Source: a virus (Duplodnaviria > Heunggongvirae > Uroviricota > Caudoviricetes). From it: a stretch of 40,163 bases of DNA. The notes under the pieces are model-generated. The model was not told the DNA's origin. It searched no databases and was given only the letters and a program-made list of their open reading frames with translations. The position numbers and the translations under genes are program-made. Positions within the stretch are counted from its first letter, which is position 1, and each line of letters opens with the position of its first letter. Below, in pieces: positions 2,796 through 40,163 of the stretch. The stretch covers positions 1-40,163 of IMG/VR virus record IMGVR_UViG_2671180637_000025. One strand, given 5' to 3'.

Positions 2796-3818
2796 TTACT
2801 CGAATTCTGGACGCATATCGTTAAGCGTCATCATGAATTTTTGGTGATATTCATCACCGAGCTTTTCAGCCATGGTGTTAATCTCATTTTCAGCGCGCTT
2901 GAACATCGTTTTTGCATCTTCAGCAGATGGATCTAGGCTATTAAGTATCGCGATGATATATTCTCGAGCTTCTTCTCGTTCTGAATCTGAAATTGGCGAC
3001 AGGTGTTGACGCTCATCGTCAACTACGGAATATTCACCAGTGATAACAGCTGCGTTATCTTGGCTAAGTCCAGCTTCAGCGCGCTCATCCATAACAACAG
3101 CCTTCTGCATTTCAATAGAAACAGGAAGATATTTGAACAGTCGGCGAATTACTGTTTTTTTAGCCATCTCATCGAAGTGATCAACCCATGGGCCACTGCT
3201 ACCGGCTTTGCTCAGTGCACGAACTTTCTCAACGTCTGCCCGGCTCATAACTTCAAATTGGACTCCGCCATCTTTCAGTCGTGCAACGGCGTAAACGTGC
3301 GTTAATTCTCCGCGGTCACCTGTTTCGCAAGGTAAATGCTCGAGCGTTTCTTCCAGGCCGTATGAGTAGCTGAATTTGTCGTTTGTATGTACGGTACGAG
3401 CCGAGATACTCAGGATCTGCCCAGAGCGGCGGGCAAGGTCAATCATTCCGCGATAGCCGATAATCAGCTGTGCTTCTGTAGATGCGGTTTCCCATCTTCC
3501 ATTTACTTTCTGGCGTTTGTCGAACGGTATCAGGTAAGCGTGTCCAAGAGCTCCGCCTGGTTCAAGACCCAATTGGGCACATTGCATGATTGCCCCCAGG
3601 AAGCTGGCTTGGTCGCATGATGCAAGTTTTGGAACCTTTCGGATCTCTGTGGTTGCTATGCGCGCCAGACGGTCTGCTGTCATGTGCTTTGGAAGTGCCA
3701 AAGCCATCTGAGCTTTAATTTTTGGGTCTGCCAGAAGTCCGGCCAGAGTTGTTGGTTTCTCATTATGATGTGCAACTTGGTTACCGGTAGCCGCTGCCTT
3801 AAGTGCATTGATAGACAT
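2796..3818 (-). CDS. recT: RecT-family single-strand annealing recombinase
   Basis: 340 aa; long collinear match to recalled E. coli RecT (HMTAERMIRIATTEIRKVP..., LIIGYRGMIDLARRSGQI..., THVYAVARLKDGG..QFEVM, KKTAIRRLFKYLPVSIE). Confidence 0.9.
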   Translation of the reverse strand: MSINALKAAATGNQVAHHNEKPTTLAGLLADPKIKAQMALALPKHMTADRLARIATTEIRKVPKLASCDQASFLGAIMQCAQLGLEPGGALGHAYLIPFDKRQKVNGRWETASTEAQLIIGYRGMIDLARRSGQILSISARTVHTNDKFSYSYGLEETLEHLPCETGDRGELTHVYAVARLKDGGVQFEVMSRADVEKVRALSKAGSSGPWVDHFDEMAKKTVIRRLFKYLPVSIEMQKAVVMDERAEAGLSQDNAAVITGEYSVVDDERQHLSPISDSEREEAREYIIAILNSLDPSAEDAKTMFKRAENEINTMAEKLGDEYHQKFMMTLNDMRPEFE

Positions 3819-3827
3819 TTTTTCTCC

Positions 3828-4727
3828 TTACTTCATTCTGAAGACGCGTTGTGTCGTTGTTGTTTTGAATTTTTCGAATAAATCAGGGTGTACTGACTGG
3901 AATAGCTTCTGGTCGAATCTGTTGCTGATCTGAGATTTCCATGTGCAGAGCGGCTTTCCGTCCAGTGTCAGGACTGAGTGCTCTTGCATGTACATCTTCA
4001 GCTTCTCTTCTGATATAGCTATTTCTTCTTCCAGTGATTTTCTGCGTGACTTCATGTCTCGTAGATCGTTGAATAGTGCGAGTGCCTTTCCGTCAGCCTC
4101 GATACTTGTCCCGGCATCTTTCTCAAACATCAGCGATACATCGCTTACGCTGGTAGCTTCCGGCGGGTTAAGATTTTTCACTCGGTCCCAGAAAGCGATT
4201 TCTTTTTCTAAGATCGCCTGGATAGTTTCTTCATCACGCTCAACCCGATAGATTCGGAAGTCGTCGCCACCGATAAGCACACCGAAAACGCATACCTGTT
4301 TGTTTGTAACCATCAACCCGTGCATGGCCTGGGCCGTGTAATGCACAGGAATTGCATCTGTCTGGATTTCTCCCCATTCTTTGGCTTTGAACGGACTAAC
4401 TGTTTTGATCTCAATGTTCTCGCCTGACGCTGCTTCTGCATCGATCTCAGCTGCAATAAAATCGTAATCACGGTGGATATAGCGGTTTCCGCGATGAACG
4501 ATTTCCATCCCCGTTTCCTCAGAAAGCAGGTCTATTACGTATGGCTCCATACGCTGGCCACGCGTGAAAACTTTCTGCTTGCTTGGGTCTACTGGTTTGA
4601 CACGTGGCTGGACCTTATCCAGATAAACCTCAAGCGGGGTGCGCCATGGGCTAATTCCAAGAATCCCTGCAACATCGCTTCCTCCGATGTATTTTGTTCT
4701 ATCCATGATTCCTGCGTTCCGCATCAT
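3828..4727 (-). CDS. YqaJ-type (lambda-exonuclease-like, PD-(D/E)XK) recombination exonuclease, partner of RecT
   Basis: 299 aa; N-terminal GGSDVAGILGISPWRTPLEVYL signature; directly upstream of recT; ATGA start/stop overlap with upstream ORF at 4724..4727. Confidence 0.85.
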   Translation of the reverse strand: MMRNAGIMDRTKYIGGSDVAGILGISPWRTPLEVYLDKVQPRVKPVDPSKQKVFTRGQRMEPYVIDLLSEETGMEIVHRGNRYIHRDYDFIAAEIDAEAASGENIEIKTVSPFKAKEWGEIQTDAIPVHYTAQAMHGLMVTNKQVCVFGVLIGGDDFRIYRVERDEETIQAILEKEIAFWDRVKNLNPPEATSVSDVSLMFEKDAGTSIEADGKALALFNDLRDMKSRRKSLEEEIAISEEKLKMYMQEHSVLTLDGKPLCTWKSQISNRFDQKLFQSVHPDLFEKFKTTTTQRVFRMK

Positions 4728-5331: not shown

Positions 5332-5916
5332 TTATTGTTTGTTTTTTTCGTTCTGGCTGATGACAAATTCAATGTAACTTTCGATCTTTGCCTTCTCTGT
5401 TTCAGGTAACAATGCGTAGCGCGAGCGGTCATAGTTGATGGTCGCAGGGTCGTGCGGGTGAATCAGTAATTCATAGCCGTGACGCCCGAATGCGGATGCA
5501 ACATTCTCCAGGGTGGAAATGGAAACGCTGACCTCATTGTTTAACAGGCGGCTGATTGTCACCTGGGCGACGCCGGATGCGCGGTGAAGTTTTCCCTGCG
5601 TTGAAAGGTCGCGGCTTTCGCTCATCCAGCGTTCCAGGTTGTGAGCCGCCAGTTGACCAATGTCGCTTGGTCCGACAGGCTGAAAACCTTCCTGAGAAAG
5701 CGAGCGATCGATATCAAGCCAGTTACGGGGTTTATTGGCGGCAGCTTCAATTTTTCGCGCAACCTGGTCGCCGATAACCTTCTTGCCAAGAGCCCAGCGG
5801 TTTACCAGATTTGCCTGAGTTCCAAGTTTTTCTGCCATCCGCGTCTGAACACCATTGAATTCACGGTCGATCAAGTCGTTGAGATTTTGCCTGCGGACGT
5901 CCTGGATACTTTTCAT
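5332..5916 (-). CDS. Immunity repressor (CI analogue) with two HTH domains and no LexA/S24-type autocleavage domain
   Basis: 194 aa; divergent from the Cro-like gene across a three-operator region; XRE-like HTHs (MAEKLGTQANLVNRWALGKK and ASGVAQVTISRLLNNEVSVSISTL); no peptidase-like C-terminus. Confidence 0.75.
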   Translation of the reverse strand: MKSIQDVRRQNLNDLIDREFNGVQTRMAEKLGTQANLVNRWALGKKVIGDQVARKIEAAANKPRNWLDIDRSLSQEGFQPVGPSDIGQLAAHNLERWMSESRDLSTQGKLHRASGVAQVTISRLLNNEVSVSISTLENVASAFGRHGYELLIHPHDPATINYDRSRYALLPETEKAKIESYIEFVISQNEKNKQ

Positions 5917-6323: not shown

Positions 6324-6346
6324 GACCGCCATCCGGCGGTCTTTTC
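6324..6346 (+). terminator. tR1-like intrinsic terminator after the Cro-like gene
   Basis: Stem GACCGCC / GGCGGTC with loop ATCC followed by TTTT. Confidence 0.55.
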
Positions 6347-6451
6347 ATATCTATTCGTACCTCAAAGGTAATAAAAAACCAAATCTGGTTGATCTTTTTT
6401 TTGTGTCAGCACAAAATAACCGTAATCCCAATACTAATAACAGGGCTTACC

Positions 6452-6652
6452 ATGGAAATCATTACACGTATTGATGCCGCAAAGCGCGGACTTAAACGCT
6501 ACTACACCGGAAAACCATGTAAGCACGGACATGACAGTGAACGCTGGGTTTACAACGGACACTGTGTTGAGTGCACCATGGAATCAAACCGTCGCATCAG
6601 GGCAGAGATTAAGCAGATCATGATTAATTCCTCCCCACAACATTCAAGCTGA
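6452..6652 (+). CDS. Small zinc-ribbon-like protein in the lambda cII position
   Basis: Internal ATG of ORF 6389..6652; 66 aa; CKHGH...CVEC cysteine/histidine cluster; no resemblance to lambda CII itself. Confidence 0.45.
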   Translation: MEIITRIDAAKRGLKRYYTGKPCKHGHDSERWVYNGHCVECTMESNRRIRAEIKQIMINSSPQHSS

Positions 6653-6667
6653 TAGCGGAGATTAATC

Positions 6668-7459
6668 ATGAGCAGACATGCAACAGATTGGGCCTGGGAG
6701 ACAGATCCAGGTAGCTCGTCATTAAAGCTCATACTGCTCTCGATGGCTGACAGAGCCGATGAATATAACCTCTGCTACCCCAGCATAGAACGCCTCGTTA
6801 AAGACACCTGCCTGAATAAAAAAACCGTACAGGCCGGGCTTATATCGCTCATGAAAATGGGGCTTATTTCAGATACCGGAGAGAGAAAGGGAGCGACGAA
6901 AAGAGTGCGGGTTTTCTCTCTTAATATAACCAAAAACGGGAACATTAAAGGCAACCGGGAAGGGAGCAATGAACCCGAAAACGGTAATGTTACCGAAAAC
7001 GGGAATATACCCAAAAACGGGATGTTGAATGATCCCAAAAACGGGATCCAGAACCAGTCATATAACCAGTCATTTAACCAAGAGAGGGAGAGCAGGACAA
7101 AAAGCGGGGATTCTGTGCCTCATGACCCCGGCGCAAACAACGCCGTGATGAATAACTTTGTTCCTCCTGGTGGGCCAGGGCAATTAGGCAAATTTGTCAT
7201 GCATGAACAATGGCAACCATCAGATGACTTTCTTCGGAAAAGCTCATTGCAGGGGATCTACCTGGACAGTCTGCCAACGGCACAGGAACTTGCAGAGTTC
7301 AGAATTTACTGGATGGCTGAGGGTAAGGCATACCATCAGGCACAGTGGGAGCTGAAGCTGGCAAGGCGGCTGCAGATTAGCAGACAGAAGCAATCAACAT
7401 TACCTGATAACAACGTTCCGCACTGGAACAGCCCTGAAGCGTGGGAGGATTTCTTGTGA
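6668..7459 (+). CDS. Replication initiator, lambda O-like, with origin iterons inside the gene
   Basis: 263 aa; N-terminal HTH; central NGN/KNG peptide repeats mirror five DNA iterons; immediately upstream of the P-like gene. Confidence 0.8.
   Translation: MSRHATDWAWETDPGSSSLKLILLSMADRADEYNLCYPSIERLVKDTCLNKKTVQAGLISLMKMGLISDTGERKGATKRVRVFSLNITKNGNIKGNREGSNEPENGNVTENGNIPKNGMLNDPKNGIQNQSYNQSFNQERESRTKSGDSVPHDPGANNAVMNNFVPPGGPGQLGKFVMHEQWQPSDDFLRKSSLQGIYLDSLPTAQELAEFRIYWMAEGKAYHQAQWELKLARRLQISRQKQSTLPDNNVPHWNSPEAWEDFL
6929..7048 (+). repeat. Replication-origin iterons: five direct repeats of C(A/G)AAAACGG(G/T)A(A/T)
   Basis: Cores at 6931, 6976, 6994, 7012, 7036 (spacings 45, 18, 18, 24 bp), all inside the O-like coding region. 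Confidence 0.75.
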
Positions 7460-8241
7460 ACAACGTTTTTACCGCGATACAAAACCGTGACGGAGAAGCC
7501 CTTTCTCGCATGTCAGGTTATGAGCATCAGTACGTCAACAATGACAATGTGGTGAACATGTCAGCAGAGAGGCTTGTTGATGCCCTTTTCAAACAGCTGA
7601 AACAACTGTTTCCGGCGGCAGTGGTAACCAACCTGAAGACGCCAGAGCAGGAAGTTGCTGCAAAACAGCAGTGGATTGCTGCGTTTGCCGAAGGGGGGAT
7701 CCGAACCCGTGAACAGGTTTCTGCTGGTATGCGCCACGCCCGCGCCAGTGAATCTCCGTTCTGGCCGTCGCCAGGGCAATTTATCAAGTGGTGTAAAGAC
7801 AGCAAGATGGTTCTTGGCGTCACCATTGACGATGTGATGGCGGAGTTTCACCGGTACAGCAAGGAAAAAAGTTTATATCCTGGTGGTCCCGAAAGATTCC
7901 CGTGGCGACATCCGGTTATGTACTGGGTCGTATGTGATACCCGCCGTGCAATGTATCAGCGCCAGCTTAGCGAGATTGAGGTTGAGAAACATGCGCGCAG
8001 GCTGCTCGATGATTGGGCGAAAAAGGTGGCTTCCGGACAGCAGATACCCGATCCGGTGATCAGCATACAGGCAAAGCCAGAACCCATGAGTACGCCTCCG
8101 GACACAGGGAGAGACGTTTACCATCCACCAGGGCGAAGTTTCGGGTGTATGCCTAACGCCGCTACCCTGGGGGGAATAACACCGGCGCAGTGGCTGATGG
8201 AGGAATACAGGCGGGGAAAGGCGGCAGGATTTATCAAGTAA
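7456..8241 (+). CDS. Replication protein P-like (helicase loader)
   Basis: Collinear with recalled lambda P (EQVSAGMRHARASESPFWPSPGQFIKWCKD vs lambda EQVNAGMRVARRQNRPFLPSPGQFVAWCRE); start placed at GTG 7456 behind GGGAGGA; track ORF starts at 7441. Confidence 0.8.
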   Translation: MNNVFTAIQNRDGEALSRMSGYEHQYVNNDNVVNMSAERLVDALFKQLKQLFPAAVVTNLKTPEQEVAAKQQWIAAFAEGGIRTREQVSAGMRHARASESPFWPSPGQFIKWCKDSKMVLGVTIDDVMAEFHRYSKEKSLYPGGPERFPWRHPVMYWVVCDTRRAMYQRQLSEIEVEKHARRLLDDWAKKVASGQQIPDPVISIQAKPEPMSTPPDTGRDVYHPPGRSFGCMPNAATLGGITPAQWLMEEYRRGKAAGFIK

Positions 8242-8278
8242 TACCAGCGCGATAGCGCATTTTTTTACGTCTTGATAA

Positions 8279-8355
8279 TTACCTGTTGGGTAATAAAATA
8301 TTCTAAAATCTATTGATTTCGTGTCTTATGTGGTTTTTAATTACCTCGTGGGTAA
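8279..8355. promoter_or_regulatory. Second OL-type operator pair: TTACCTGTTGGGTAA (8279..8293) and TTACCTCGTGGGTAA (8341..8355)
   Basis: Two perfect TTACC-N5-GGTAA dyads, again 62 bp apart, bracketing TTGATT-N17-TTTAAT just upstream of the ATG at 8359. Confidence 0.6.
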
Positions 8356-8358
8356 ATC

Positions 8359-8703
8359 ATGAGAAAACAGATACAGGCTCTTGGTCGACTCAAAACAGGC
8401 CAGATGAACAAAACAGAATCTGCGTATTGCCAGCACCTTGAGCTGCGTAAACGTGCAGGGGAAATCGCCTGGTATCGATTCGAGGGTATCAAGCTGCGGT
8501 TAGCTGATAACACGTTCTATACGCCAGATTTCGCTGTGATGCTCGCCACCGGAGAGATGGAACTGCACGAAGTGAAAGGTTTCTGGACCGACGACGCCAG
8601 GGTGAAAACCAAAGTCGCCGCAGATCAATATCCGTTCCGAATCATCGGGGTAACTGTTAAGCCAAAGAAAGCAGGTGGTGGCTGGAAAATCGAAGAGTTC
8701 TGA
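8359..8703 (+). CDS. VRR-NUC / PD-(D/E)XK-type nuclease (possible junction resolvase)
   Basis: 114 aa; motif YTPDF...(17 aa)...ELHEVKG, and GFWTDDARV resembling RusA GFWLDDAQV. Confidence 0.55.
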   Translation: MRKQIQALGRLKTGQMNKTESAYCQHLELRKRAGEIAWYRFEGIKLRLADNTFYTPDFAVMLATGEMELHEVKGFWTDDARVKTKVAADQYPFRIIGVTVKPKKAGGGWKIEEF

Positions 8704-8764
8704 ATCGACGATCTTTTTAGTTATCAATGTAATCAATAAGTTATGTGGATAAGCGAGGGTAAAG

Positions 8765-9466
8765 ATGGAAAGTAATATCAAAGGGTTAGTTGCCGCCGGG
8801 CATGAGATGGCTTCGGAACTGAAAGCAGAATGTGGTGCCGTTGATATGCGTAGTGTGGCAAAGCTGATCAGCGATTTGGCAACGCAACTGGAAGTGCAAC
8901 TGGTGCGTGCTAATGCGCTGGCCGAAGACCAACAGAAAGCGATTGAGTCAATTAAGCAGGCTGATGCAGCTGTTAAGTTGGCACACGAGAAGTTTTCAGC
9001 GCTGGCGGCGGAGAATGCTGGGCTGAAGTCTGATATTCCACTTGGTGCCATCGAGAATGGCAGAGCGTTTGCAGACCGTTTAGAGAATTACCAGTTCGAG
9101 TGTGAAGGCGGAAATCTAAACATGTGCAGTGATTGGCAGGAGTTTCGCCGTTGCTTCGAGTACTTATCTGAATGGGCAATGCATAGCCAGACAGAGCACC
9201 CAGCCACCGACGCTTTCCTGGCTGAAGTACGTGCTGAGGCGCGCAACGAGGGGATTAACTATACCGCAAGTCGTCTTGCTGCTGCTTTCAACCACGGATT
9301 TATCAATAAGTCTTTACGTGAAGTTTTCGACGTTACGCGCATGATTCTGTCAGCGAAAGAAGAGTTGGCTAATGAACCGCATCCGATTGATGGCCTGTCT
9401 GGTGAATATGCGGAAAAATCCCTAGAAGAATGGGCGGAACAGATTCGCAAAGGAGGCAACCAGTGA
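8765..9466 (+). CDS. Hypothetical protein (233 aa), coiled-coil N-terminus
   Basis: ORF with RBS; nin-like accessory block. Confidence 0.5.
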   Translation: MESNIKGLVAAGHEMASELKAECGAVDMRSVAKLISDLATQLEVQLVRANALAEDQQKAIESIKQADAAVKLAHEKFSALAAENAGLKSDIPLGAIENGRAFADRLENYQFECEGGNLNMCSDWQEFRRCFEYLSEWAMHSQTEHPATDAFLAEVRAEARNEGINYTASRLAAAFNHGFINKSLREVFDVTRMILSAKEELANEPHPIDGLSGEYAEKSLEEWAEQIRKGGNQ

Positions 9467-10092
9467 GCGAAATTAACTATCAGGCACTGCGTGAAGCGGC
9501 AGAGCAGGCAATGCATGACGACTGGGGATTTGACGCAGACCTTTTCCATGAATTGGTAACACCATCGATTGTGCTGGAACTGCTGGATGAACGGGAAAGA
9601 AACCAGCAATACATCAAACGCCGCGACCAGGAGAACGAGGATATTGCGCTAACAGTAGGGAAGCTGCGCGTTGAGCTTGAGGAGACAAAATCAAAATTCA
9701 ACGAGCAGCGTGAATATTACGAAGGTGTTATCTCGGATGGAAGTAAGCGTATTGCTGAACTGGAGAAAAGCGAAGAGCAACTCATTAACGAGCGTGACCA
9801 TGCTGAGTCTGCTTTAGCTGATATGTATTTTGCAGCAACCGGGGATAGGCCTGAGTGGAGTAACTGGTTCGGTTTTTCAGATGCAGTAGATGCCGTAGTT
9901 GACAGAATTGCTGATTTAGAAGCTAAACAGCCATCGCCAGTAGTACCTGAAGGACTGATTAAAGCGGTGCGTTTTTATGAGCAGGTAAAACGTGAGAACC
10001 CGCCAGTCGAAACCGGAGCATGGAAAGACGCTGTTGACTGGGTGCTCAAAGAGGCTTGCCAAGCTGTAAACATTGGCATCAAAGGAGAGTGA
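9463..10092 (+). CDS. Ead/Ea22-like protein
   Basis: GTG start overlapping upstream stop, RBS AAAGGAGG; N-terminus SEINYQALREAAEQA typical of the family as recalled. Confidence 0.6.
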   Translation: MSEINYQALREAAEQAMHDDWGFDADLFHELVTPSIVLELLDERERNQQYIKRRDQENEDIALTVGKLRVELEETKSKFNEQREYYEGVISDGSKRIAELEKSEEQLINERDHAESALADMYFAATGDRPEWSNWFGFSDAVDAVVDRIADLEAKQPSPVVPEGLIKAVRFYEQVKRENPPVETGAWKDAVDWVLKEACQAVNIGIKGE

Positions 10093-10093
10093 G

Positions 10094-10849
10094 ATGATTC
10101 ACTATCACGGCGGTCCTATTACTCCGGATACGTGCGCCATGAGAGCATGGAAAGGACGACATGCGTTTATCAGTTTTGCGCATTCAGGCCAGATCAATCT
10201 CGCGGCTGAATACTGTCAGTCGTTCGCGCTGGACAACGGTGCATTCACCGCCTGGAAAGCAGCTGGCAAAAACAAAATCGACTGGAGCGATTACTACGAG
10301 TTTGTTGCTCGCTGGAAGAATCACCCAGGATTCGATTTCGCCATTATCCCGGATGTTATTGATGGCGGAGAGGAGGAAAATGATGCGCTTCTGAATGAGT
10401 GGCCTCACGGAAAACTAGCTGGCGTTCCAGTGTGGCACATGAATGAAAGTGACGAGCGATTTATTCATTTGTGCAATGAGTTTCCGCGAGTGGCTATCGG
10501 TAGTTGTGGCGACTATGACGTAAAGCGCCCAACTCTTGCGGTAGCCAGAATGAAAGACCTGATTCGTCACATTGTTGATGAGCATGGTCAGCCGGTTACG
10601 AAACTACATGGATTGCGCATGTTAAATCCGCTGATATTCACAAAATTACCCTTAGCCAGCGCAGATAGTACGAACGTCGCTCGAAACATCGGTATTGATA
10701 AAGCCTGGTCTGGGGCTTATGCACCTGCAAGTAAAGAGACACGCGCAGCATTAATGGTAGAACGGATTGAGGCACACAATAGCCCTGGTTCTCTTGCGTA
10801 TTGTGAACAACGCGACCGTTTTGAAATGCAATTGCAACTAGCAGTTTAA
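10094..10849 (+). CDS. Hypothetical protein, candidate TGT-fold / DpdA-like transglycosylase
   Basis: 252 aa from ATG 10094 (RBS AAGGAG); ALDNGAF and ASADSTNVARN loosely resemble tRNA-guanine transglycosylase motifs; no zinc motif; assignment tentative. Confidence 0.4.
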   Translation: MIHYHGGPITPDTCAMRAWKGRHAFISFAHSGQINLAAEYCQSFALDNGAFTAWKAAGKNKIDWSDYYEFVARWKNHPGFDFAIIPDVIDGGEEENDALLNEWPHGKLAGVPVWHMNESDERFIHLCNEFPRVAIGSCGDYDVKRPTLAVARMKDLIRHIVDEHGQPVTKLHGLRMLNPLIFTKLPLASADSTNVARNIGIDKAWSGAYAPASKETRAALMVERIEAHNSPGSLAYCEQRDRFEMQLQLAV

Positions 10850-10859
10850 GGACTAACAA

Positions 10860-11609
10860 ATGACCACTATTACCAAAGAACGTATCAAATTATTCATTAA
10901 AAATCCGCTTGATAACGGACTTACTCGTGGCGAACAAATGGAACTGGCACGGATTGCGCTGGCATCGCTTGAATCGGAACCAGTTGCATGGGCTGATAAC
11001 GAGGAGTTACTTGATATCGAGAGTATTGGTTGCGGATATTTATTGCCGTATCCGCCAGATAAAGATGTAGACCCGCGTCGTGTTATCCCGCTGTATCGGG
11101 TGTCGTCAACGCAGATAGCGCGGGAGGCCATTGAAAACGCAATTGAATACATCCGCAGTATCGCTTTTCACATCGATGAAGACGATTACCACGGCAAACA
11201 TATTGCGTATTTCATGCGACAAGCATTGGCCTGGCTGGAAGGGCATTCATGCAGCGACGACAGACTGGGTAAAGCCGAGAATCAAACAGTACACGGCAAC
11301 CAGGCTGCCGAATCCAATCGCGGTAATGAGTGGACCGGCAATCCTGATATTGATAACGCCATCATCATGCTCGATCGCATAGATACGCTGGAAAGTTGCG
11401 ATGATGACCGTATTGAGACTGTTAAGGCTGTTTTGCGTAGACTGGCTGGCAACTATCCGGTAACTCCGGATAGTTGGGTTATGGTTCCTAAACAGGTAAC
11501 GCCGGAAATCAGCAACGCGATAAACGTTGTGGGTCAACGCTGTACATGCGGAAATTGCTCTCAGCGGTTGTGGGATTTATTACTCGACGCCACACAGCAA
11601 GGAGGTTAA
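10860..11609 (+). CDS. Hypothetical protein (249 aa), C-terminal CTCGNC cluster
   Basis: ORF with RBS; no confident family. Confidence 0.5.
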   Translation: MTTITKERIKLFIKNPLDNGLTRGEQMELARIALASLESEPVAWADNEELLDIESIGCGYLLPYPPDKDVDPRRVIPLYRVSSTQIAREAIENAIEYIRSIAFHIDEDDYHGKHIAYFMRQALAWLEGHSCSDDRLGKAENQTVHGNQAAESNRGNEWTGNPDIDNAIIMLDRIDTLESCDDDRIETVKAVLRRLAGNYPVTPDSWVMVPKQVTPEISNAINVVGQRCTCGNCSQRLWDLLLDATQQGG

Positions 11610-11611
11610 CC

Positions 11612-11839
11612 GTGGCTAACCTGCAACTTGCCGTAAAAGGTGAAAAAGATTTGAGGATTCGCATCATTAATAACACCGACAAGCATCCGGAAGATTATTT
11701 GGATTGCACGTTAGCAGAGTGCGGTATTTCCGTATGGGATGAGTTCGATGTGATGCGTAAAACCGCTTACGGCTATGTCGTAATTCATAACGGAGAAGAA
11801 TTATTTGTTCGTCGGTCAGAATGCGTGGAATTGATATAA
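11612..11839 (+). CDS. Hypothetical protein (75 aa)
   Basis: GTG start 3 nt after the upstream stop, RBS AGGAGG. Confidence 0.45.
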   Translation: MANLQLAVKGEKDLRIRIINNTDKHPEDYLDCTLAECGISVWDEFDVMRKTAYGYVVIHNGEELFVRRSECVELI

Positions 11840-11896
11840 GAGAATCTCCGTACATCGGCAACACACAGCTAAATATGTTCGCAATAAAGGTAAATA

Positions 11897-12238
11897 TTGA
11901 TGGCTAAATCAGCAGCAGAGCGCAAAGCCGCTCAGAGAGCCAGACAAGCTGCATCTGGTGTGCGTAAGCTGGAGATTGTGCTTGATGCTCAGGAAATTGA
12001 AATGCTGGAGCGTAACTGTGCCACGCGTCGCCCCGGGCGTGCGCCTTACGAATTTGGTGAGTATATAGCGTTACTGATCCGCCAGGATGATGCACGCGTG
12101 CGCGGGCGTATAAAATCGATCAGCAGAAAACGTTGCGGTAAGTGCGGCGAGAGAGTTCCTGTGAATTCATGCCCGTGTAATGGTGACTCGCAATGCTGGG
12201 TGACTAAAGGCTGGCATGAAACGAAATTAATAGTGTGA
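11897..12238 (+). CDS. Putative zinc-finger regulator; positional candidate for a late-gene regulator
   Basis: 113 aa; C-terminal CGKCGERVPVNSCPCNGDSQC; last gene before the terminase block; stop codon lies inside the 14-bp palindrome. Confidence 0.4.
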   Translation: MMAKSAAERKAAQRARQAASGVRKLEIVLDAQEIEMLERNCATRRPGRAPYEFGEYIALLIRQDDARVRGRIKSISRKRCGKCGERVPVNSCPCNGDSQCWVTKGWHETKLIV

Positions 12239-12247
12239 CATGTCACG
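12234..12247. repeat. Copy 1 of 14-bp motif TGTGACATGTCACG
   Basis: Exact 14-mer, one of three in the window. Confidence 0.8.
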
Positions 12248-12255
12248 AAGGTGTT

Positions 12256-12468
12256 ATGCCAAAAATACGCTACGACCTTGAAGATATGAGAGATAACTCA
12301 GCAAATTTTCCGAAAGAGGTTAAATTTCTCATGCATAAGTATGGTTGCGCCAGGAGGGATATAGTTATCGACAGTCAGCACCCTTGCGGCGAGGATGTAA
12401 TTTTCATTCGCGGTAAATGGGAAGGGTATCTTGACGAGAGTTTTTACGATGAATTTGATGGACTTTGA
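12256..12468 (+). CDS. Hypothetical protein (70 aa)
   Basis: Start placed at ATG 12256 behind GAAGGTG; the track start at 12235 lies inside the palindrome. Confidence 0.4.
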   Translation: MPKIRYDLEDMRDNSANFPKEVKFLMHKYGCARRDIVIDSQHPCGEDVIFIRGKWEGYLDESFYDEFDGL

Positions 12469-15078: not shown

Positions 15079-15155
15079 TGGCGTGGCATGCAGGATTCGA
15101 ACCTGCGACCAACCGCTTAGAAGGCGGTTGCTCTGTCCAACTGAGCTAATGCCAC
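15079..15155 (-). tRNA. tRNA-Arg (anticodon UCU), argU-like, phage-internal
   Basis: 77 nt GTGGCATTAGCTCAGTTGGACAGAGCAACCGCCTTCTAAGCGGTTGGTCGCAGGTTCGAATCCTGCATGCCACGCCA; perfect 7-bp acceptor stem, D stem GCTC/GAGC, anticodon stem ACCGC/GCGGT with loop CTTCTAA, T stem GCAGG/CCTGC with loop TTCGAAT, encoded CCA. Confidence 0.85.
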
Positions 15156-32315: not shown

Positions 32316-32340
32316 CACAAAAAAGCCCGCGGCGCGGGCT
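32316..32340 (-). terminator. Intrinsic terminator closing the two-gene minus-strand operon
   Basis: Stem AGCCCGC / GCGGGCT overlapping the stop codon, T-run on the minus strand. Confidence 0.55.
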
Positions 32341-32717
32341 TAATTAACTTCGAGGATAATAGAATCTTTAGACTTGAATCCCACTTTCCTCATGGCTGTA
32401 ATGACGTTTTGGATAATCCACGTTTTCCCAAACTCTCTTTCGTGTACAATGGCGCAAGGAAAATGAAGGGCGCTTTTGTTGCACTTTATGGTGAAAGTTG
32501 TACCTTCGGCAAAATCCAAAACAGTCTGCAGATGTGCAGATATAAACGATTTAAACACATCTTCAAGCTCAGCAAGAGTAATTGGCGGTTTGTTCCTCTC
32601 GTCGTTCAGGCGTTCATATGCTGCATGAAATGAAAAGTGAATTCTTGCCGCATCTTCTTGCAAGATCTCGTTAATCTCATCCTCAAGATCAATGAGTTGT
32701 TGTTCTGTTATAGACAT
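32340..32717 (-). CDS. Hypothetical protein (125 aa), distal gene of the island operon
   Basis: Overlaps the proximal gene by 10 nt; AT-rich; no recognisable motif. Confidence 0.5.
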   Translation of the reverse strand: MSITEQQLIDLEDEINEILQEDAARIHFSFHAAYERLNDERNKPPITLAELEDVFKSFISAHLQTVLDFAEGTTFTIKCNKSALHFPCAIVHEREFGKTWIIQNVITAMRKVGFKSKDSIILEVN

Positions 32718-32926
32718 AGATAACGGGAGGTCGCCTCACTTATTTTTTGATTTAATTCATCATCATTGGATGCACGTACAGTAGCAACATGCTTACTTTG
32801 GCGTAGGGTCCCAATTCTGATATCAAATTCTTCATTATCGAAAGAGTCAACGAAAACAGCTTTACCAGTTTCTGGATGGTAAAAAGAGGCATAGTTTTGG
32901 TTGAGTTGCATATCAAATTTAAACAT
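32708..32926 (-). CDS. Hypothetical protein (72 aa), proximal gene of the island operon
   Basis: Strong RBS GGGAGG before ATG 32926; operator-like site and TTGATT -35 upstream. Confidence 0.5.
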   Translation of the reverse strand: MFKFDMQLNQNYASFYHPETGKAVFVDSFDNEEFDIRIGTLRQSKHVATVRASNDDELNQKISEATSRYLCL

Positions 32927-33043
32927 ATCATCCTCCCATACGGGAACAGACGTGACTTACATACGGTGTGATTTTGACTAGTTAACTTTCTGCAGCAAAA
33001 CCATCACGGTAACTACAAACTAAAATGTTACAAATCAACTTTC

Positions 33044-33058
33044 TTACCTTTGGGGTAA
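33044..33058. promoter_or_regulatory. Operator-like site TTACCTTTGGGGTAA upstream of the island operon
   Basis: Perfect TTACC-N5-GGTAA about 120 bp upstream of ATG 32926; a degenerate copy at 33003..33017. Confidence 0.5.
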
Positions 33059-33123
33059 TAGTACGCTATTCACCTGCAATCTGTACAGAATTATTTAAAG
33101 GCACATCCCTGTGCCGCCGCCCG

Positions 33124-33810
33124 TCAGAAGAACCATGCCTTGTCGTTGATGTACTCCGCGTGCGTCTGGATATCACGCAGGCATTTGCTCACACCGACGA
33201 TGTAGCAGAACATGGTGGTCAGTTCCGCCGCCGCGCCCGATACATCATGCCCGTCGTCCTGCAACTGGTTTAGCAGATTCATCAGCAGTGAGTTCTCCGT
33301 CAGGCCGAGAACACCAGACGGCGAGTGAATCAGGCTACGGTAGCCTGGCTTCAGTGGGGCACTGTAGGTTTTGTTCTCTATCTTCATTGCCTGCATCACT
33401 GCTGATGCTGTGGCGTTGGCTACCTGGTCGGCAACCATCTTTATGCGTTCTTCCTGCGGGAGCGAGTTTTTAATGTAACTTCCGGTGCGGCGGATCTGAG
33501 GAAGAACCTCACCTGTAACCCATTTACGAAAGCGGTAGGGGATAGTGCCTGGTGTCACTGCGTCGCGGCAGCGGAGGATCAGTGTGTAGAGGCCTGACTC
33601 GTTGATAATATTGGTTTCGCCTTGACGGCCTAAGTTAAATTTAGCCCTTTCATCATCATCAAGAGATTTTATTGACATAGTGGGGTTTGTCAGTTGAAGA
33701 GCTTTAATAACGTCTTTGGCAACAAACCAAGGATTTCCATCAATAACAATGGCTCGAATGGTTGCTTCTGATTCAAAATGAAAAACAGATGGGGTTACGT
33801 TAGCAGTCAT
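33124..33810 (-). CDS. Antirepressor, Bro-N-type N-terminal domain plus C-terminal domain shared with the neighbouring small ORF
   Basis: Start at ATG 33810 behind AGGTGA (track extension to 33963 runs through a terminator); Bro-N signature VFHFESEATIRAIVIDGNPWFVAKDV. Confidence 0.7.
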   Translation of the reverse strand: MTANVTPSVFHFESEATIRAIVIDGNPWFVAKDVIKALQLTNPTMSIKSLDDDERAKFNLGRQGETNIINESGLYTLILRCRDAVTPGTIPYRFRKWVTGEVLPQIRRTGSYIKNSLPQEERIKMVADQVANATASAVMQAMKIENKTYSAPLKPGYRSLIHSPSGVLGLTENSLLMNLLNQLQDDGHDVSGAAAELTTMFCYIVGVSKCLRDIQTHAEYINDKAWFF

Positions 33811-33962
33811 AGTGATCACCTTTGTAGTTAGGTTAATCACCACTACCGACGCCAATCGGTTGGTGGTGAACTGTGCAGGGTTGGCGTAACCGGCTACAAA
33901 GGACCCGGCGCACCTTTCGGTGCCCCCACACAGCCCACCATAGAATAGGTGCGCTTTACACA

Positions 33963-33982
33963 TAAAAAAACCGCTTATGCGG
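33963..33982 (-). terminator. Intrinsic terminator between the two antirepressor genes
   Basis: Stem CCGC / GCGG with loop ATAA followed by eight T on the minus strand. Confidence 0.55.
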
Positions 33983-34076
33983 CATATGTGCCTCTGTAGT
34001 AATCCGGGACGCCAATCCCGGCACTGGATTTTGCCAGTGCCCGATTACTATGGCACAAGAGGAGTGCGATGTAAAT

Positions 34077-34091
34077 TTACCGTAAAGGTAA
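34077..34091. promoter_or_regulatory. Operator-like site TTACCGTAAAGGTAA upstream of the Bro-N antirepressor gene
   Basis: Perfect TTACC-N5-GGTAA. Confidence 0.5.
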
Positions 34092-34122
34092 ATATAAGCA
34101 CTCCTCTTGGTAATTTCAAATC

Positions 34123-34380
34123 TTATCTGGTTTGTTTTCGTAATTGTTCGGCACAATAGTCGAGATGTGTTTGCAGATCCCGCATAGACATCTGTGAGCT
34201 GGTGACGTAGTTAATCAGTGCAGTCAGTTCGGCAAGTGGGCCATCGACATTAAATCCATCCTTATCGAGATCCAGGAGTAATTTCATCAAGTGCGATCCC
34301 TCCACTAGTGATCTGACGCCTCCCGGCGTGTGAATCCTTTCGGTAAATCCGTCTTCCAGTGGATAGTGATACTGCTGCAT
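34123..34380 (-). CDS. Small antirepressor-domain protein (85 aa), SOS-regulated candidate
   Basis: Start at ATG 34380 behind GGAGAAG (track extension to 34503 would cross the LexA box and operator); by-eye ~40-45% identity to the C-terminal ~80 aa of the adjacent antirepressor. Confidence 0.55.
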   Translation of the reverse strand: MQQYHYPLEDGFTERIHTPGGVRSLVEGSHLMKLLLDLDKDGFNVDGPLAELTALINYVTSSQMSMRDLQTHLDYCAEQLRKQTR

Positions 34381-34399
34381 CTTATCTTCTCCATGCAAT

Positions 34400-34419
34400 A
34401 ACTGTATATTTATACAGTA
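34400..34419. promoter_or_regulatory. LexA (SOS) box AACTGTATATTTATACAGTA
   Basis: 19/20 match to the recalled consensus TACTGTATATATATACAGTA; 20 bp upstream of ATG 34380 on the minus strand. Confidence 0.8.
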
Positions 34420-34456
34420 GCAAATAATTTGTTTGCTATCCAGCACGTTTTGCAAA

Positions 34457-34471
34457 TTACCCGAAAGGTAA
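34457..34471. promoter_or_regulatory. Operator-like site TTACCCGAAAGGTAA in the divergent region between small antirepressor gene and tailspike
   Basis: Perfect TTACC-N5-GGTAA; GGTAA half-site also at 34517..34521. Confidence 0.5.
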
Positions 34472-34575
34472 TATCTGTTCGTATTTATAGGTTGTCTATC
34501 CATATGTGGTTTTTCGGGTAATAGAATAACCGGATATGCGGCGCAACGGGTGCTGCGACTATCTGGAGAATTAAC

Positions 34576-36978
34576 ATGACAGTCTCAACCGAAATCAGCC
34601 ACAATGAGTATCTCGGGAATGGAGTCACGACATCATTCCCATATACTTTCAGAATTTTTAAAGACACAGATCTTGATGTAAGCACAATAACCGCTGACGG
34701 TCTTGTTTCTCCAATGATCCTGGGGACAGATTACATGGTTACAGGTGCTGGCTTATCTTCCGGTGGAAGCGTTATTACGTCATCTCCTGTTTTGCCAGGC
34801 ATTACAATATCAATCACTCGTAACCTTCCAGCAGTGCAGGAAACTGATTTAAGAAATCAGGGGAAATTTTTTGCAGAGGTCCATGAGGATGCATTCGACT
34901 ACCTGACCATGCTTATTCAGCATGCGATGTTCAACATCGGTGCTCTTCAGAGAAATACGCTTAGGGTTCCTGAAAACAGTGTAAACCTGGTGCCAAAGGT
35001 ATCAAGTCGCCGGAATATGATTTTTGGCTGGGATGACAGTGGGCAGCCTATAGCCATTCTCCCTCCGAGTGCTTCTGCCAGTGAAGTGCTGATTCTTCTT
35101 GCTCAGCCTGACGGATGGAAAAAGATCGGTGGCGTGGATAAATTTGAGCCGATACCAATCACCGTTATGCCATCTTACAATCAATCAAACGTTGTTGCAG
35201 CATGGGTGGAGAGTGTAAATCTCTATGGCTATGTTTATTTCCCTTGCCACTCTGCAACAAAGAAAACTTATACAATACCAGGAACGGCCTCACAGGCAGG
35301 AAATCTGCAAAACTCCCGTGTAATCGTTGATAAAAACGTCATTCTTAAATTCGACAGCGATCTTTACTCGCTTTATAAGTCGCTGAAGTTTGAAGGTGAA
35401 TGCACTTTTGAGTTTTCCCATCTTAATTTCACAACAACCGGTGGAGAGGTGGATTACCTGGCTAAGCAGGCTATCCTCAACCGAAACCCTATTCGCATGA
35501 AGCGAGTGGAATGGTCAGATTGTAAAGTTTATTCCATAAATGGTGACACGTTCTTCTATGAAGGTGAAGTCACCATATCCTCAGATAGCGCAGCTATCTT
35601 CCCCTTAACTACTGACCGTACAACAGGCCTGTTCGCACCAATAGATATTGGAGAGCATATTTCTGCACATATTCGTATGGAGTCTCAGGCCGCCTCAGAA
35701 GTTGGGATTGTTCTGCGATGCTCTGGTGGTTGGATGATGTTCTATGGGGCACCAGGTGCTACACAGTGGTCTTATAGACAGAAACCAATTGGTGGTCCAG
35801 TAGCAGAAGGAACTCCATTCCCGCTGCCAGGAGGTTTACTGTCGTACGCCCCGGGCAAAGCAACCGTTGGCGTATCACTGCAAGGTAAAAACTGGGCGCA
35901 GATAACGATGAATGGCGTTGGGATACGTTTGCCCTTTGATACTGCTGATGTAGGGGATGTATACGAAGTTGGGTTTGTTGCACTGACCACGGCATCTGGA
36001 GGTTCTGCGCGTGTAACTGGATTATGCAGCTACACCTCTGATAATGGCGTGCACGGTAAGCCTCCACTTAATATCCTTATCCACGGTGATAGTACAGCTG
36101 AGGATTTCATTTCCGCGTTCAGCTCGTACATTCCGCAATTAATGGATGGAGCGAACGGCCACCGTTCATATAGCATTGTAAACAAGGCGGTTGCCGGACA
36201 GACAATGAGGCAACAGTTAGATCTCCTGAAGGCTCAGGGGCCGGGTGATGCTTACATCGTTATTATGGTTGCCGGAACTAACGAAGGGCAGGCAAACCAA
36301 AACGGCGATTATATGGCGGCACTGATAGATGAGTTTGTCTTATATTGCAATGGCCTTGGTCGTATCCCTGTTTGGGTTGAGCCGTGGATGTGGTATAGCC
36401 AATCATTTATTGGAGGGGCTGGCCAGCCATCTTCTAACTACGACGGTGTCGCAGAGTTGCGAGAAGCTGGTAAACGCCAGATGATGAAATATGGCAATAA
36501 CGTCATTTGTGTAACAACAACTCACCAGCTCCCGGCCCCATATCCAGAGTATTTCAACACGCAATACGACCCACTTCTGCGTGATGACATTCACCAAAGC
36601 CAGTTAGGGTATCGTCTGTATGCGGAAATTATCTGCTCTGCCATTATCGACTGGTGGTCGCGTGTTGATTACACGCCAAGAGCAGCTGTTCAATGGTGGG
36701 CTGGAACAAACGTAACAGTACAGGAACCGTCAAGTTTAACTGCCAATTCAATTAATATTAAACTGGCAGCCACTTCATTTGCGAATGGCAATACTGTTCT
36801 AACGCTTCCGAGGTGGTGCAGACCAAAAGTAACCAAAAATGTCCCTGTACTGTTCACTGCTGATGGCGTTTCATTTGGCATGGCAATGGCCACCATTAAC
36901 GCTTCAACAGGACAAATATCGATTGATGGGTCCACAACTACATCTCCAACGTTCTACATAGATGCGACATGGGCGTGA
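34576..36978 (+). CDS. Tailspike/tail fibre with T7 gp17-like N-terminal anchor and C-terminal SGNH/GDSL esterase domain
   Basis: 800 aa; N-terminus EYLGNGVTTSFPYTFRIF; SGNH blocks ILIHGDSTAE, MVAGTNEG, RDDIHQS. Confidence 0.8.
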   Translation: MTVSTEISHNEYLGNGVTTSFPYTFRIFKDTDLDVSTITADGLVSPMILGTDYMVTGAGLSSGGSVITSSPVLPGITISITRNLPAVQETDLRNQGKFFAEVHEDAFDYLTMLIQHAMFNIGALQRNTLRVPENSVNLVPKVSSRRNMIFGWDDSGQPIAILPPSASASEVLILLAQPDGWKKIGGVDKFEPIPITVMPSYNQSNVVAAWVESVNLYGYVYFPCHSATKKTYTIPGTASQAGNLQNSRVIVDKNVILKFDSDLYSLYKSLKFEGECTFEFSHLNFTTTGGEVDYLAKQAILNRNPIRMKRVEWSDCKVYSINGDTFFYEGEVTISSDSAAIFPLTTDRTTGLFAPIDIGEHISAHIRMESQAASEVGIVLRCSGGWMMFYGAPGATQWSYRQKPIGGPVAEGTPFPLPGGLLSYAPGKATVGVSLQGKNWAQITMNGVGIRLPFDTADVGDVYEVGFVALTTASGGSARVTGLCSYTSDNGVHGKPPLNILIHGDSTAEDFISAFSSYIPQLMDGANGHRSYSIVNKAVAGQTMRQQLDLLKAQGPGDAYIVIMVAGTNEGQANQNGDYMAALIDEFVLYCNGLGRIPVWVEPWMWYSQSFIGGAGQPSSNYDGVAELREAGKRQMMKYGNNVICVTTTHQLPAPYPEYFNTQYDPLLRDDIHQSQLGYRLYAEIICSAIIDWWSRVDYTPRAAVQWWAGTNVTVQEPSSLTANSINIKLAATSFANGNTVLTLPRWCRPKVTKNVPVLFTADGVSFGMAMATINASTGQISIDGSTTTSPTFYIDATWA

Positions 36979-39092: not shown

Positions 39093-39632
39093 TTAATTAA
39101 ACCAGCTGTCCGATTTGTTCTCTTCTGCTTTGCCCACGCTTTTCATCAGATCGCGACCGCCTTCAGTCATATTTCTGTTGGCGTCAGCTTCAGATTGCAC
39201 CACATCGGTTTGCGCAGCTTTGTGCTTCAGTTCCTGATCGATAAATTCGTTTTCTCGCTTAACGCGGGCTTCTTCTTTCGCCAGCGCCAGTTTTTGTTTC
39301 TGAATCTCTAAGCTGCGTAGCTCATCTTCATAACTTTGATCGCGTTTTTTGTCCGCAGAGGCTTCGGCGTCCAGTTTATCCTGACGAGCTTTCTTATTTG
39401 CCGCTGCCGTTGCCGCTCTTTTGTTAGCGGCGGCCTGGGCATTTGCGCGACGTTGCTTCTCTTGCTGGATTTCCCTGTTGCGCTCCGCGACCCATTCGTC
39501 ATGCTGCCTTTGCTCTTCATTTTTACCTTGCTGTTCCGCTTCTGCGACAGCAGAGAGTTGATCCTGCAATGATGAGGCGATAGCCGGATAGCTTAAGGAG
39601 GCTAAGATGGCGCAAAGAAAAACTTTCTTCAT
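39093..39632 (-). CDS. Secreted/periplasmic coiled-coil protein (179 aa); host flank or phage cargo
   Basis: Signal peptide MKKVFLCAILASLSYPAIA without lipobox; Lys/Glu/Gln/Ala-rich. Confidence 0.5.
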   Translation of the reverse strand: MKKVFLCAILASLSYPAIASSLQDQLSAVAEAEQQGKNEEQRQHDEWVAERNREIQQEKQRRANAQAAANKRAATAAANKKARQDKLDAEASADKKRDQSYEDELRSLEIQKQKLALAKEEARVKRENEFIDQELKHKAAQTDVVQSEADANRNMTEGGRDLMKSVGKAEENKSDSWFN

Positions 39633-39647
39633 GACTCCTCCTGATTA

Positions 39648-40163
39648 TTAGCTCTTTTCAGGACATTTGGTATTTGGCTGAATACGCGTTTCGTTATACG
39701 TCGTGGTAATAACAACGGCTAAACCTGTCGTAAACTGGCACTCTTTACCCACCTGGGTAGAGGTATACACTTTGGTGCCTTCCTTATAGGTTAAAGAAAC
39801 ACCTTCCACTAAGGTTTTATCATTCACCATAGAACCCGCTGCCGCGCCTACAGCTCCGCCGCCAACTGCACCTGCCGTCGTTCCGGAATTGCTGCCAGAC
39901 CCGACGTTGTGGCCGATAACACCGCCAGCGACTGCGCCAATAAGCGCGCCGAAGGCTTGTGCGTTCCGTTTATTTTGGGAGTTGTCTACGGCAACTTTTG
40001 CGGGAAGAATGGAAATAATATTAACGGTTTTAGTTTCTTGTTTGGTATTCAGTTGATCGGTTTGATAAACATCGGCAGCATGATCGTCAGCATTTGACTG
40101 GCATCCTGCCAGAGTGAATGACGCTAACATTGCCACAGGCAGAAGACATTTTTTAAATTTCAT
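39648..40163 (-). CDS. Lipoprotein with glycine-zipper-like segment (171 aa); host flank or phage cargo
   Basis: ATG at the last base of the window; lipobox LAGC; Gly/Ala-rich GALIGAVAGGVIGHNVG...GAVGGGAVGAAAG. Confidence 0.5.
   Translation of the reverse strand: MKFKKCLLPVAMLASFTLAGCQSNADDHAADVYQTDQLNTKQETKTVNIISILPAKVAVDNSQNKRNAQAFGALIGAVAGGVIGHNVGSGSNSGTTAGAVGGGAVGAAAGSMVNDKTLVEGVSLTYKEGTKVYTSTQVGKECQFTTGLAVVITTTYNETRIQPNTKCPEKS

Follow-up and report, generated by a model that had tools for sequence, protein, structure and literature searches.

A DpdA-like gene without linked preQ0 genes in an Escherichia coli prophage

The 40,163-nucleotide stretch analyzed here (IMG/VR record IMGVR_UViG_2671180637_000025, referred to below as the window) contains an entire Escherichia coli prophage of ~39 kb (positions 1-38875) followed by host genes (39093-40163). 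An open reading frame (ORF) at positions 10094 to 10849 had been proposed, from short motif matches, to encode a DpdA-like DNA transglycosylase of tRNA-guanine transglycosylase (TGT) fold. Fold, profile and motif evidence together place its product in the TGT superfamily, in the phage DpdA branch, and we regard membership in the phage DpdA family as very probable. This finding is correct but not new: near-identical "DpdA only" genes were catalogued in 2019, and the original prediction re-derived independently what had been published then. We consider it reasonably likely that the gene encodes a singleton phage DpdA, a minimal, zinc-less (beta/alpha)8 enzyme of the TGT superfamily that acts on DNA, exchanging selected guanines for preQ0 (7-cyano-7-deazaguanine) supplied by the host.

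Family membership, fold and predicted active site

The dpdA-like coding sequence runs on the + strand from an ATG at 10094 to a TAA ending at 10849 and specifies 251 residues plus the stop; the ORF as originally described stands, while its length of 252 amino acids (aa) does not, the stop codon having been counted. The ATG at 10094 is preferred over an alternative TTG at 10073 because homologues begin at the same MIHYHG. Across 10094-10849 the reverse strand contains many stops.

10094..10849, + strand: dpdA-like coding sequence, 251 aa, 28.1 kDa, isoelectric point 6.2
10083..10087, + strand: Shine-Dalgarno sequence AGGAG, 6 nucleotides (nt) before ATG 10094, read from the sequence

The protein matches the PHROGs family phrog_887, "queuine tRNA-ribosyltransferase", with an E value of 2.9e-103, and a tblastn search of 50,697 phage records found a homologue in 108 of them. 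Identity to the window protein is 98.8% in a Stx1a-converting phage, 93.6% in BTP1 (gp23), 93% in SPN3UB, 93-94% in other Salmonella phages and 68% in SfI, and about 36-38% in HK106, 7-11 and Pantoea phage MED16. The family is large: scoring covered more than 7800 protein clusters (90% identity), and an exhaustive HMMER scan recovered 823 representatives (50% identity) with E <= 1e-3, 148 of them with E <= 1e-30. A profile of 141 family members was then compared by hhalign with the validated DpdA of phage CAjan (gp35), yielding a probability of 97.3% and an E value of 1.8e-11 over 150 columns. This alignment pairs LDNGAF, KLHGLR and SADSTN of the window protein with LDSGAFS, KLHAFG and SCDSSS, respectively, of CAjan DpdA. 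The annotated start of one homologue, phage 7-11 gp032 (locus L002, 3986-4690, 234 aa), is internal relative to the HK106 and window proteins, leaving the annotated product without the conserved N-terminal HxHG strand; the start codon has probably been mis-called in that record. Two apparent DpdA-like fusions among the long representatives (P0233 and P0266), a D12 methyltransferase::DpdA-like protein (421 aa) and a DpdA-like::baseplate hub GPD protein (399 aa), were set aside, as their domains are truncated and they may be artefacts of gene calling or assembly.

The AlphaFold2 model of the protein, built from a 141-sequence alignment, has a mean predicted local distance difference test score (pLDDT) of 89.7 and a predicted template modelling score (pTM) of 0.87. 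Strands and helices alternate in the model as they do in a (beta/alpha)8 barrel, so that the predicted fold is TGT-like, as had been supposed. A Foldseek search of predicted viral structures (BFVD) returned 31 matches with E <= 1e-3, and those carrying names are almost all phage "queuine tRNA-ribosyltransferase"; weaker matches were unnamed proteins of Vibrio phage nt-1 (E 2.7e-3) and Cellulophaga phage phiST (E 5.8e-3). Foldseek against the PDB was not discriminating, with Cap10 as the best structural match.

Several sequence comparisons speak against this assignment. Scans of the window protein with Pfam, NCBIfam and PADLOC (E <= 10) gave no match, phmmer with the window protein found none among PDB sequences, and hmmsearch of PDB sequences with a 46-sequence profile gave only spurious matches to GCN4 coiled coils (E > 0.2). 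No relationship was found by hhalign between the family profile and the single sequence of E. coli Tgt. The profile comparison proposed with the original prediction was thus positive for CAjan DpdA and negative for E. coli Tgt, and since the latter alignment fails, the connection to TGT is made by the fold and by way of phage DpdA. The validated CAjan DpdA, too, lacks both a Pfam match and a PDB sequence match and has only a marginal match to the PADLOC DpdA model (E 0.0013), and the DpdA homologues of MED16, 7-11 and HK106 likewise lack a Pfam match. Because a validated enzyme fails the same tests, the silence of Pfam, PDB and PADLOC says nothing against membership. The same silence would be expected if the protein were an unrelated triosephosphate isomerase (TIM)-barrel enzyme, aldolase-like for example, whose motif matches are coincidental, but for the reason just given it is uninformative on this point as well. 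Such an origin is scarcely credible, as hhalign places the catalytic motifs in register with those of CAjan DpdA, the BFVD matches are specific to phage DpdA-like proteins and two Asp residues are invariant.

To assess conservation, 46 full-length representatives with 34-55% identity to the window protein were aligned. Residues D47, H172, S189, D191 and S192 are invariant in this alignment, and H5, A50, W54, P86, D87, I89, G91, N96, P112, V113, H115, E118, G136, G173, L174 and P186 are conserved in at least 90% of its members. Both motifs on which the original prediction was founded, ALDNGAF (residues 45-51) and ASADSTNVARN (residues 188-198), are present and fall on the positions that the family conserves most strongly; these matches are not due to chance. 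In a direct alignment of seven proteins (from the window, BTP1, MED16, HK106, 7-11, Caulobacter phage DMCA and CAjan), L46, D47, G49, A50, F51, D191 and S192 are invariant and H172 is common to all. The codons of the four segments considered in what follows are located as listed.

10229..10246, + strand: LDNGAF (L46-D47-N48-G49-A50-F51); D47 invariant, A50 near-invariant
10346..10366, + strand: IPDVIDG (I85-P86-D87-V88-I89-D90-G91), at the C-terminal end of a beta-strand
10601..10618, + strand: KLHGLR (K170-L171-H172-G173-L174-R175); H172 invariant, aligned with KLHAFG of CAjan
10658..10675, + strand: SADSTN (S189-A190-D191-S192-T193-N194); S189, D191 and S192 invariant

In bDpdA, Asp95 acts as acid/base, Phe99 and Leu236 stack on the base, Asp130 and His181 read its Watson-Crick edge and Asp256 is the nucleophile (PMC10164549); D73, D122, K154, H226 and D248 are the equivalents in Cap10 (bioRxiv 2025.04.06.647259). 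In order and spacing, D47, F51, D87, (H115), H172, L174 and D191 of the window protein appear to match these active-site residues. D47, which corresponds to bDpdA D95, Cap10 D73 and the Asp of the TGT motif DSGGFQ, is predicted to serve as general acid/base and to recognize the base; F51 is the predicted base-stacking Phe (bDpdA F99), and L174, by analogy to bDpdA L236, is the predicted stacking Leu. D191 is the predicted nucleophile of a covalent enzyme-DNA intermediate, corresponding to bDpdA D256, Cap10 D248 and E. coli Tgt D264 in FDCVMPTRNARNG. H172 probably hydrogen-bonds the nucleophile, like Cap10 H226, which lies 22 residues before D248 where H172 lies 19 before D191. The conserved P86, D87, I89 and G91 of the IPDVIDG segment follow a strand at residues 80-84 of the AlphaFold2 model; the sole Asp of this segment in CAjan aligns with D90, not D87, so that the register is uncertain and the equivalence of D87 putative.

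The dpdA-like gene and its BTP1 orthologue share 82% nucleotide and 94% protein identity, with a ratio of nonsynonymous to synonymous substitution rates (dN/dS) of ~0.02 in which dS is saturated. The gene is under strong purifying selection and is a functional, selected gene.

Relation to known systems and supply of the precursor

The closest counterparts of the window gene are found in group 3, "DpdA only", of Hutinet et al. 2019, which lists BTP1 gp23 (SIU02687 / YP_009639228), SPN3UB, SfI, HK106, SEN1 and 7-11 (PMC6884629, Supplementary Data). Singleton DpdA proteins cluster apart from the others, one of their clusters being that of gamma-Proteobacteria phages (PMC6884629), and gp38 of Pantoea phage MED16 has been reported as a further singleton (PMC8306585). 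Apart from the 2019 catalogue and the report on MED16, the literature searched yielded nothing on DpdA of the BTP1 type or of temperate phages. The window protein resembles this clade in length class, motifs, PHROG assignment, the early-operon location of its gene in a temperate phage and absence of phage genes for preQ0 or archaeosine (G+), and differs from it in no essential respect. In both BTP1 and the window the dpdA-like gene adjoins Ead/Ea22-like genes; however, BTP1 is P22-like and carries the gene in its leftward "ea" region, whereas here it lies in the rightward operon of a BPP-1-like podovirus prophage by guaA, between the replication genes and the terminase.

The validated DNA preQ0 transglycosylases of the Queuovirinae are the DpdA1 enzymes of phages CAjan (gp35) and 9g. 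CAjan DpdA shares with the window protein the LDxGAF, KLH and (S/C)DS motifs, the absence of CxCxxC and the lack of a Pfam match. It is nonetheless only ~21-25% identical to the window protein and is not linked to it by tblastn or phmmer at E <= 1e-5. At 306 aa it is longer, being extended at both termini; its gene is part of a FolE-QueD-QueC-QueE-YhhQ cluster, and it modifies ~32% of G (PMC6884629), compared to at most 0.13% of G in the singleton phages that have been measured. bDpdA (PDB 7UI4), of the bacterial Dpd restriction-modification system, is larger still: its 413 aa include four insertions and a structural zinc site. It needs the ParB-like ATPase DpdB and works with DpdC and the restriction genes DpdD-K. 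None of DpdB, DpdC and dpdD-K was found among the prophage ORFs, and the PADLOC DpdA model did not match the window protein at E <= 10.

Cap10 of type IV CBASS (cyclic oligonucleotide-based antiphage signaling system; PDB 9NTN) is 9% identical to the window protein and acts on the N terminus of a CD-NTase (a nucleotidyltransferase of the cGAS/DncV type) tagged by the QueC-like Cap9. This match raises the question of whether the TGT-like pocket serves a target other than DNA, either tRNA, as a phage Tgt, or a protein-linked 7-deazaguanine as in Cap10; in the latter case the protein might, for example, counter the defense by binding the CD-NTase's deazaguanine tag or taking it off. No Cap9, CD-NTase or effector gene is present near the window gene, whose neighbors are Ead/Ea22-like, DUF1064, replication and terminase genes, and PADLOC gave no match. 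Bacterial Tgt and arcTGT (PF01702) show no sequence or profile match to the window protein, which is ~120 residues shorter, has no CxCxxC...H and lacks both the beta-sheet lid at the N terminus and the C-terminal tRNA-binding elements of TGT (PMC10164549). We judge a non-DNA target to be very improbable.

The absence of linked preQ0 genes, which had been noted for the window, is borne out by tblastn and Pfam across the whole prophage and extends to its relatives. The FolE, QueD, QueC, QueE and YhhQ proteins of CAjan and the QueD of DMCA produced only tblastn noise against the whole prophage (E >= 0.2), and no family of the preQ0 pathway appeared in Pfam scans of the prophage accessory ORFs. 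ArcS and QueF were likewise absent from the Pfam scans and from the PGAP names of matching genomes, although tblastn was not aimed at them. Among 80 related IMG/VR loci (homologues with 67% identity or more; 1.07 Mb in all, counting the flanks) there was no FolE, QueD, QueC, QueE or YhhQ gene. On the host side, 5425 of 5426 complete E. coli genomes carry queC, and by this near-universal distribution the host preQ0 pathway is available to the prophage. Hutinet et al. wrote of singleton phages that they "could rely on preQ0 synthesized by the host", adding that their modification status "is difficult to predict" (PMC6884629). Single DpdA proteins are able to draw on this supply: 9g DpdA expressed alone in E. 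coli gave 790 2'-deoxy-preQ0 (dPreQ0) per 10^6 nt in plasmid DNA (PMC6884629), and DpdA2 of phage nt-1 alone gave 926-1607 per 10^6 nt, which was lost in a queD deletion (PMC10516641).

Proposed activity and its alternatives

The enzymatic activity, substrate base, DNA target, timing and protective role proposed here for the window protein are drawn by analogy from characterized members of the superfamily. The position of the gene in the early rightward operon, with replication genes to one side and the terminase to the other, leads us to propose that its product is made after induction, during phage DNA replication. By analogy with bDpdA and TGT, the enzyme would flip a guanine out of double-stranded DNA, and in a double displacement Asp191 would attack C1' and displace the guanine to give an intermediate in which enzyme and DNA are covalently joined, with Asp47 as general acid/base. 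A free 7-deazaguanine base would then resolve the intermediate to leave 2'-deoxy-preQ0 in the DNA. This base would most likely be host preQ0, made by FolE-QueD-QueE-QueC and held by Asp47, Asp87, Phe51 and Leu174, and the final product may be dADG (2'-deoxy-7-amido-7-deazaguanosine). From the two "DpdA only" phages that have been measured, we expect a rare mark (well under 1% of G) that is probably motif-specific: virion DNA of phage 7-11 contains 50 dADG per 10^6 nt, or 0.02% of G (PMC6884629), and that of MED16 contains 354 per 10^6 nt, or 0.13% of G (PMC8306585). The mark would shield phage DNA from some restriction systems, and a role in anti-restriction for host-derived 7-deazaguanine, suggested here by homology, was put forward in 2019 for near-identical proteins (PMC6884629).

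A number of observations weigh against guanine exchange for host preQ0. The structural Zn2+ site (CxCxxC...H) of TGT and bDpdA is absent from the window protein, which has only scattered cysteines at positions 14, 41, 127, 138 and 237. In E. coli Tgt this zinc motif is C302-C304-C307; CxCxxC is likewise missing from the proteins of CAjan, MED16, 7-11 and HK106. Its absence sets phage DpdA proteins apart from TGT and bDpdA, but as the CAjan enzyme is validated, loss of the zinc site is no argument against activity. bDpdA requires the ATPase DpdB (PMC10164549), and the prophage has no such partner. QueF drains preQ0 to preQ1 in E. coli and may leave only a small pool of free preQ0. The dADG of 7-11 and MED16 has never been tied genetically to their DpdA proteins, and as the hosts are unsequenced a host Dpd system could have written it. 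Moreover, dADG needs a further step after preQ0 insertion, and 7-11 and MED16 have no known gene for that step. Mycobacteriophage Orion, also "DpdA only", has no DNA modification (PMC6884629), and DpdA1 of phiSM is inactive in E. coli (PMC10516641).

The points concerning preQ0 and dADG bear on the main alternative, in which the protein is an active DNA transglycosylase but inserts another host 7-deazaguanine, either preQ1 or 7-amido-7-deazaguanine (ADG), an intermediate of QueC that would yield dADG without a DpdC-like step. In E. coli the free-base pathway ends in preQ1, and the DNA of 7-11 and MED16 contains dADG with little or no dPreQ0 (<6 and ~3 per 10^6 nt, respectively) in phages that have no DpdC homologue (PMC6884629, PMC8306585). 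DpdA2 of phage VH7D inserts preQ1, preQ0 or 7-carboxy-7-deazaguanine (CDG) according to what its E. coli host accumulates (PMC10516641), and Cap10, the best structural match, holds a 7-amido-7-deazaguanine moiety in the same pocket (bioRxiv 2025.04.06.647259). The residue after the Asp of the LDNGAF motif also differs, being Asn48 where TGT, Cap10 and CAjan DpdA have Ser. Sequence analysis discriminates none of the candidate bases, however. Free ADG is not known to build up in E. coli, which counts against that base in particular. In addition, every DpdA tested up to 2023 inserts preQ0 (PMC10516641). Insertion of a different base is a minority possibility.

The unmodified DNA of Orion and the inactivity of phiSM DpdA1 would also be accounted for if the protein were a relic of the TGT fold that exchanges no base, whether inactive, a factor that binds DNA or simply a DNA glycosylase, in which case virion DNA would be unmodified (PMC6884629, PMC10516641). 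The modification of 7-11 and MED16 is near trace, and MED16 DNA has no measurable protection, being cut by all tested G-containing enzymes not sensitive to Dam methylation (PMC8306585). Against this, more than 800 representative clusters show little or no variation at the predicted catalytic and base-binding residues, and a dN/dS of ~0.02 is not expected of a relic, although it is compatible with changed chemistry. In the case of Orion, moreover, the host lacks the preQ0 pathway (PMC6884629) that E. coli has. Loss of base exchange is unlikely, and insertion of host preQ0 is the better-supported reading.

Prophage setting and gene neighborhoods

The ORF preceding the dpdA-like gene is Ead/Ea22-like and has its TGA stop at 10090-10092, next to the Shine-Dalgarno sequence, an arrangement compatible with translational coupling; the following ORF begins at 10860. 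A simple scan of the + strand detected no promoter-like site in 8299-11011 and no terminator-like site in 6342-11450, which together with the tight packing indicates that the dpdA-like gene is an internal member of its operon. The remaining features of the window are as follows.

1-1251: integrase, on the guaA side
1446-2096, - strand: MT-A70 methyltransferase (Pfam E 7e-22)
2796-4727, - strand: RecT and YqaJ recombination genes
5332-5916, - strand: repressor-like helix-turn-helix protein
6668-8241: DnaT-like and lambda-P-like replication genes
8359-8703: DUF1064 protein
8765-10092: two Ea22-like ORFs
10860-12468: four small ORFs of unknown function
from 12465: terminase, then BPP-1-like podovirus head and core genes
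15079-15155, - strand: tRNA-Arg (anticodon TCT), between the terminase and portal genes
34576-36978, + strand: tail protein, 800 aa
37081-38875: holin, endolysin and spanin
from 39093: host yfgI / yfgH

The MT-A70 gene is a second DNA-modification gene of the prophage and adjoins DUF1382 and PerC-like genes near the integrase. Members of the Bbp16 and Bbp19 families and a T7 gp14-like core protein are encoded among the structural genes. The tRNA-Arg gene is on the strand opposite the structural operon and is annotated in related prophages too. Residues 504-681 of the tail protein show a weak match to GDSL lipase/esterase (E 1e-3, below the Pfam cut-off), and a tailspike bearing a deacetylase or esterase domain is one possible identity for this protein. 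At 32340-34503 (- strand), a BRO-N protein and two unknown ORFs are encoded in a region that is unlike the closest prophages. Many E. coli genomes have related prophages at this site, which differ from one another in the accessory region with the dpdA-like gene; the best matches cover only 88% of the query.

No conserved partner gene was found, as the flanking ORFs of the 80 related loci form dozens of unrelated clusters, and Ea22-like and DUF551-like neighbors are common to the closest relatives only. Twenty flanking ORFs in these loci belong to clusters with a DNA adenine methyltransferase representative, namely Dam (PF05869; 10), MT-A70 (7) and D12 (3), each cluster being labeled by one checked representative. 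The occurrence of three unrelated methyltransferase families (e.g., loci L036, L048 and L029) points to a "DNA modification corner" that may recur among these temperate phages. In Caulobacter phage DMCA (L004, 5705-6726), the DpdA homologue has a gene for QueD (6-carboxytetrahydropterin synthase) directly upstream, the sole preQ0-pathway gene in the 12.7-kb stretch examined, and a PTPS/QueD gene is found at the edge of a Pseudomonas prophage with a homologue (L092, 13607-13963); a lone QueD might raise the flux of host precursor. In a P. aeruginosa prophage (L089, 8523-11899), a 46%-identical homologue is located between a 406-aa protein of the PAPS (3'-phosphoadenosine 5'-phosphosulfate)-reductase family and an SRA/ScoMcrA-domain protein, after which comes putAbiC. 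QueC is a member of the same ATP-pyrophosphatase superfamily as the PAPS-reductase family, and the PAPS-reductase-like neighbor could be a functional partner in this prophage lineage.

PHROGs and some RefSeq phage records already name the family. Matches occur in 204 complete E. coli genomes, where the PGAP label is "hypothetical protein" in 25 of the 25 records listed, and the lack of any Pfam or NCBIfam model for a family of more than 7800 clusters (90% identity) constitutes an annotation gap. More speculatively, and with considerable doubt on our part, the clade may not represent a weak version of the lytic-phage enzyme but may write a rare, motif-specific mark of 7-amido- or 7-cyano-7-deazaguanine from host precursors only, either by inserting ADG directly or by copying the "self" mark of Dpd systems. 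If either were true, induced phage DNA, and perhaps the lysogen chromosome, would pass as self in hosts that carry Dpd. As the full Que genetics of E. coli are at hand, an inducible prophage of this kind would be a convenient system in which to learn what the lone DpdA proteins of temperate phages do, which base they use and against which defenses it helps.

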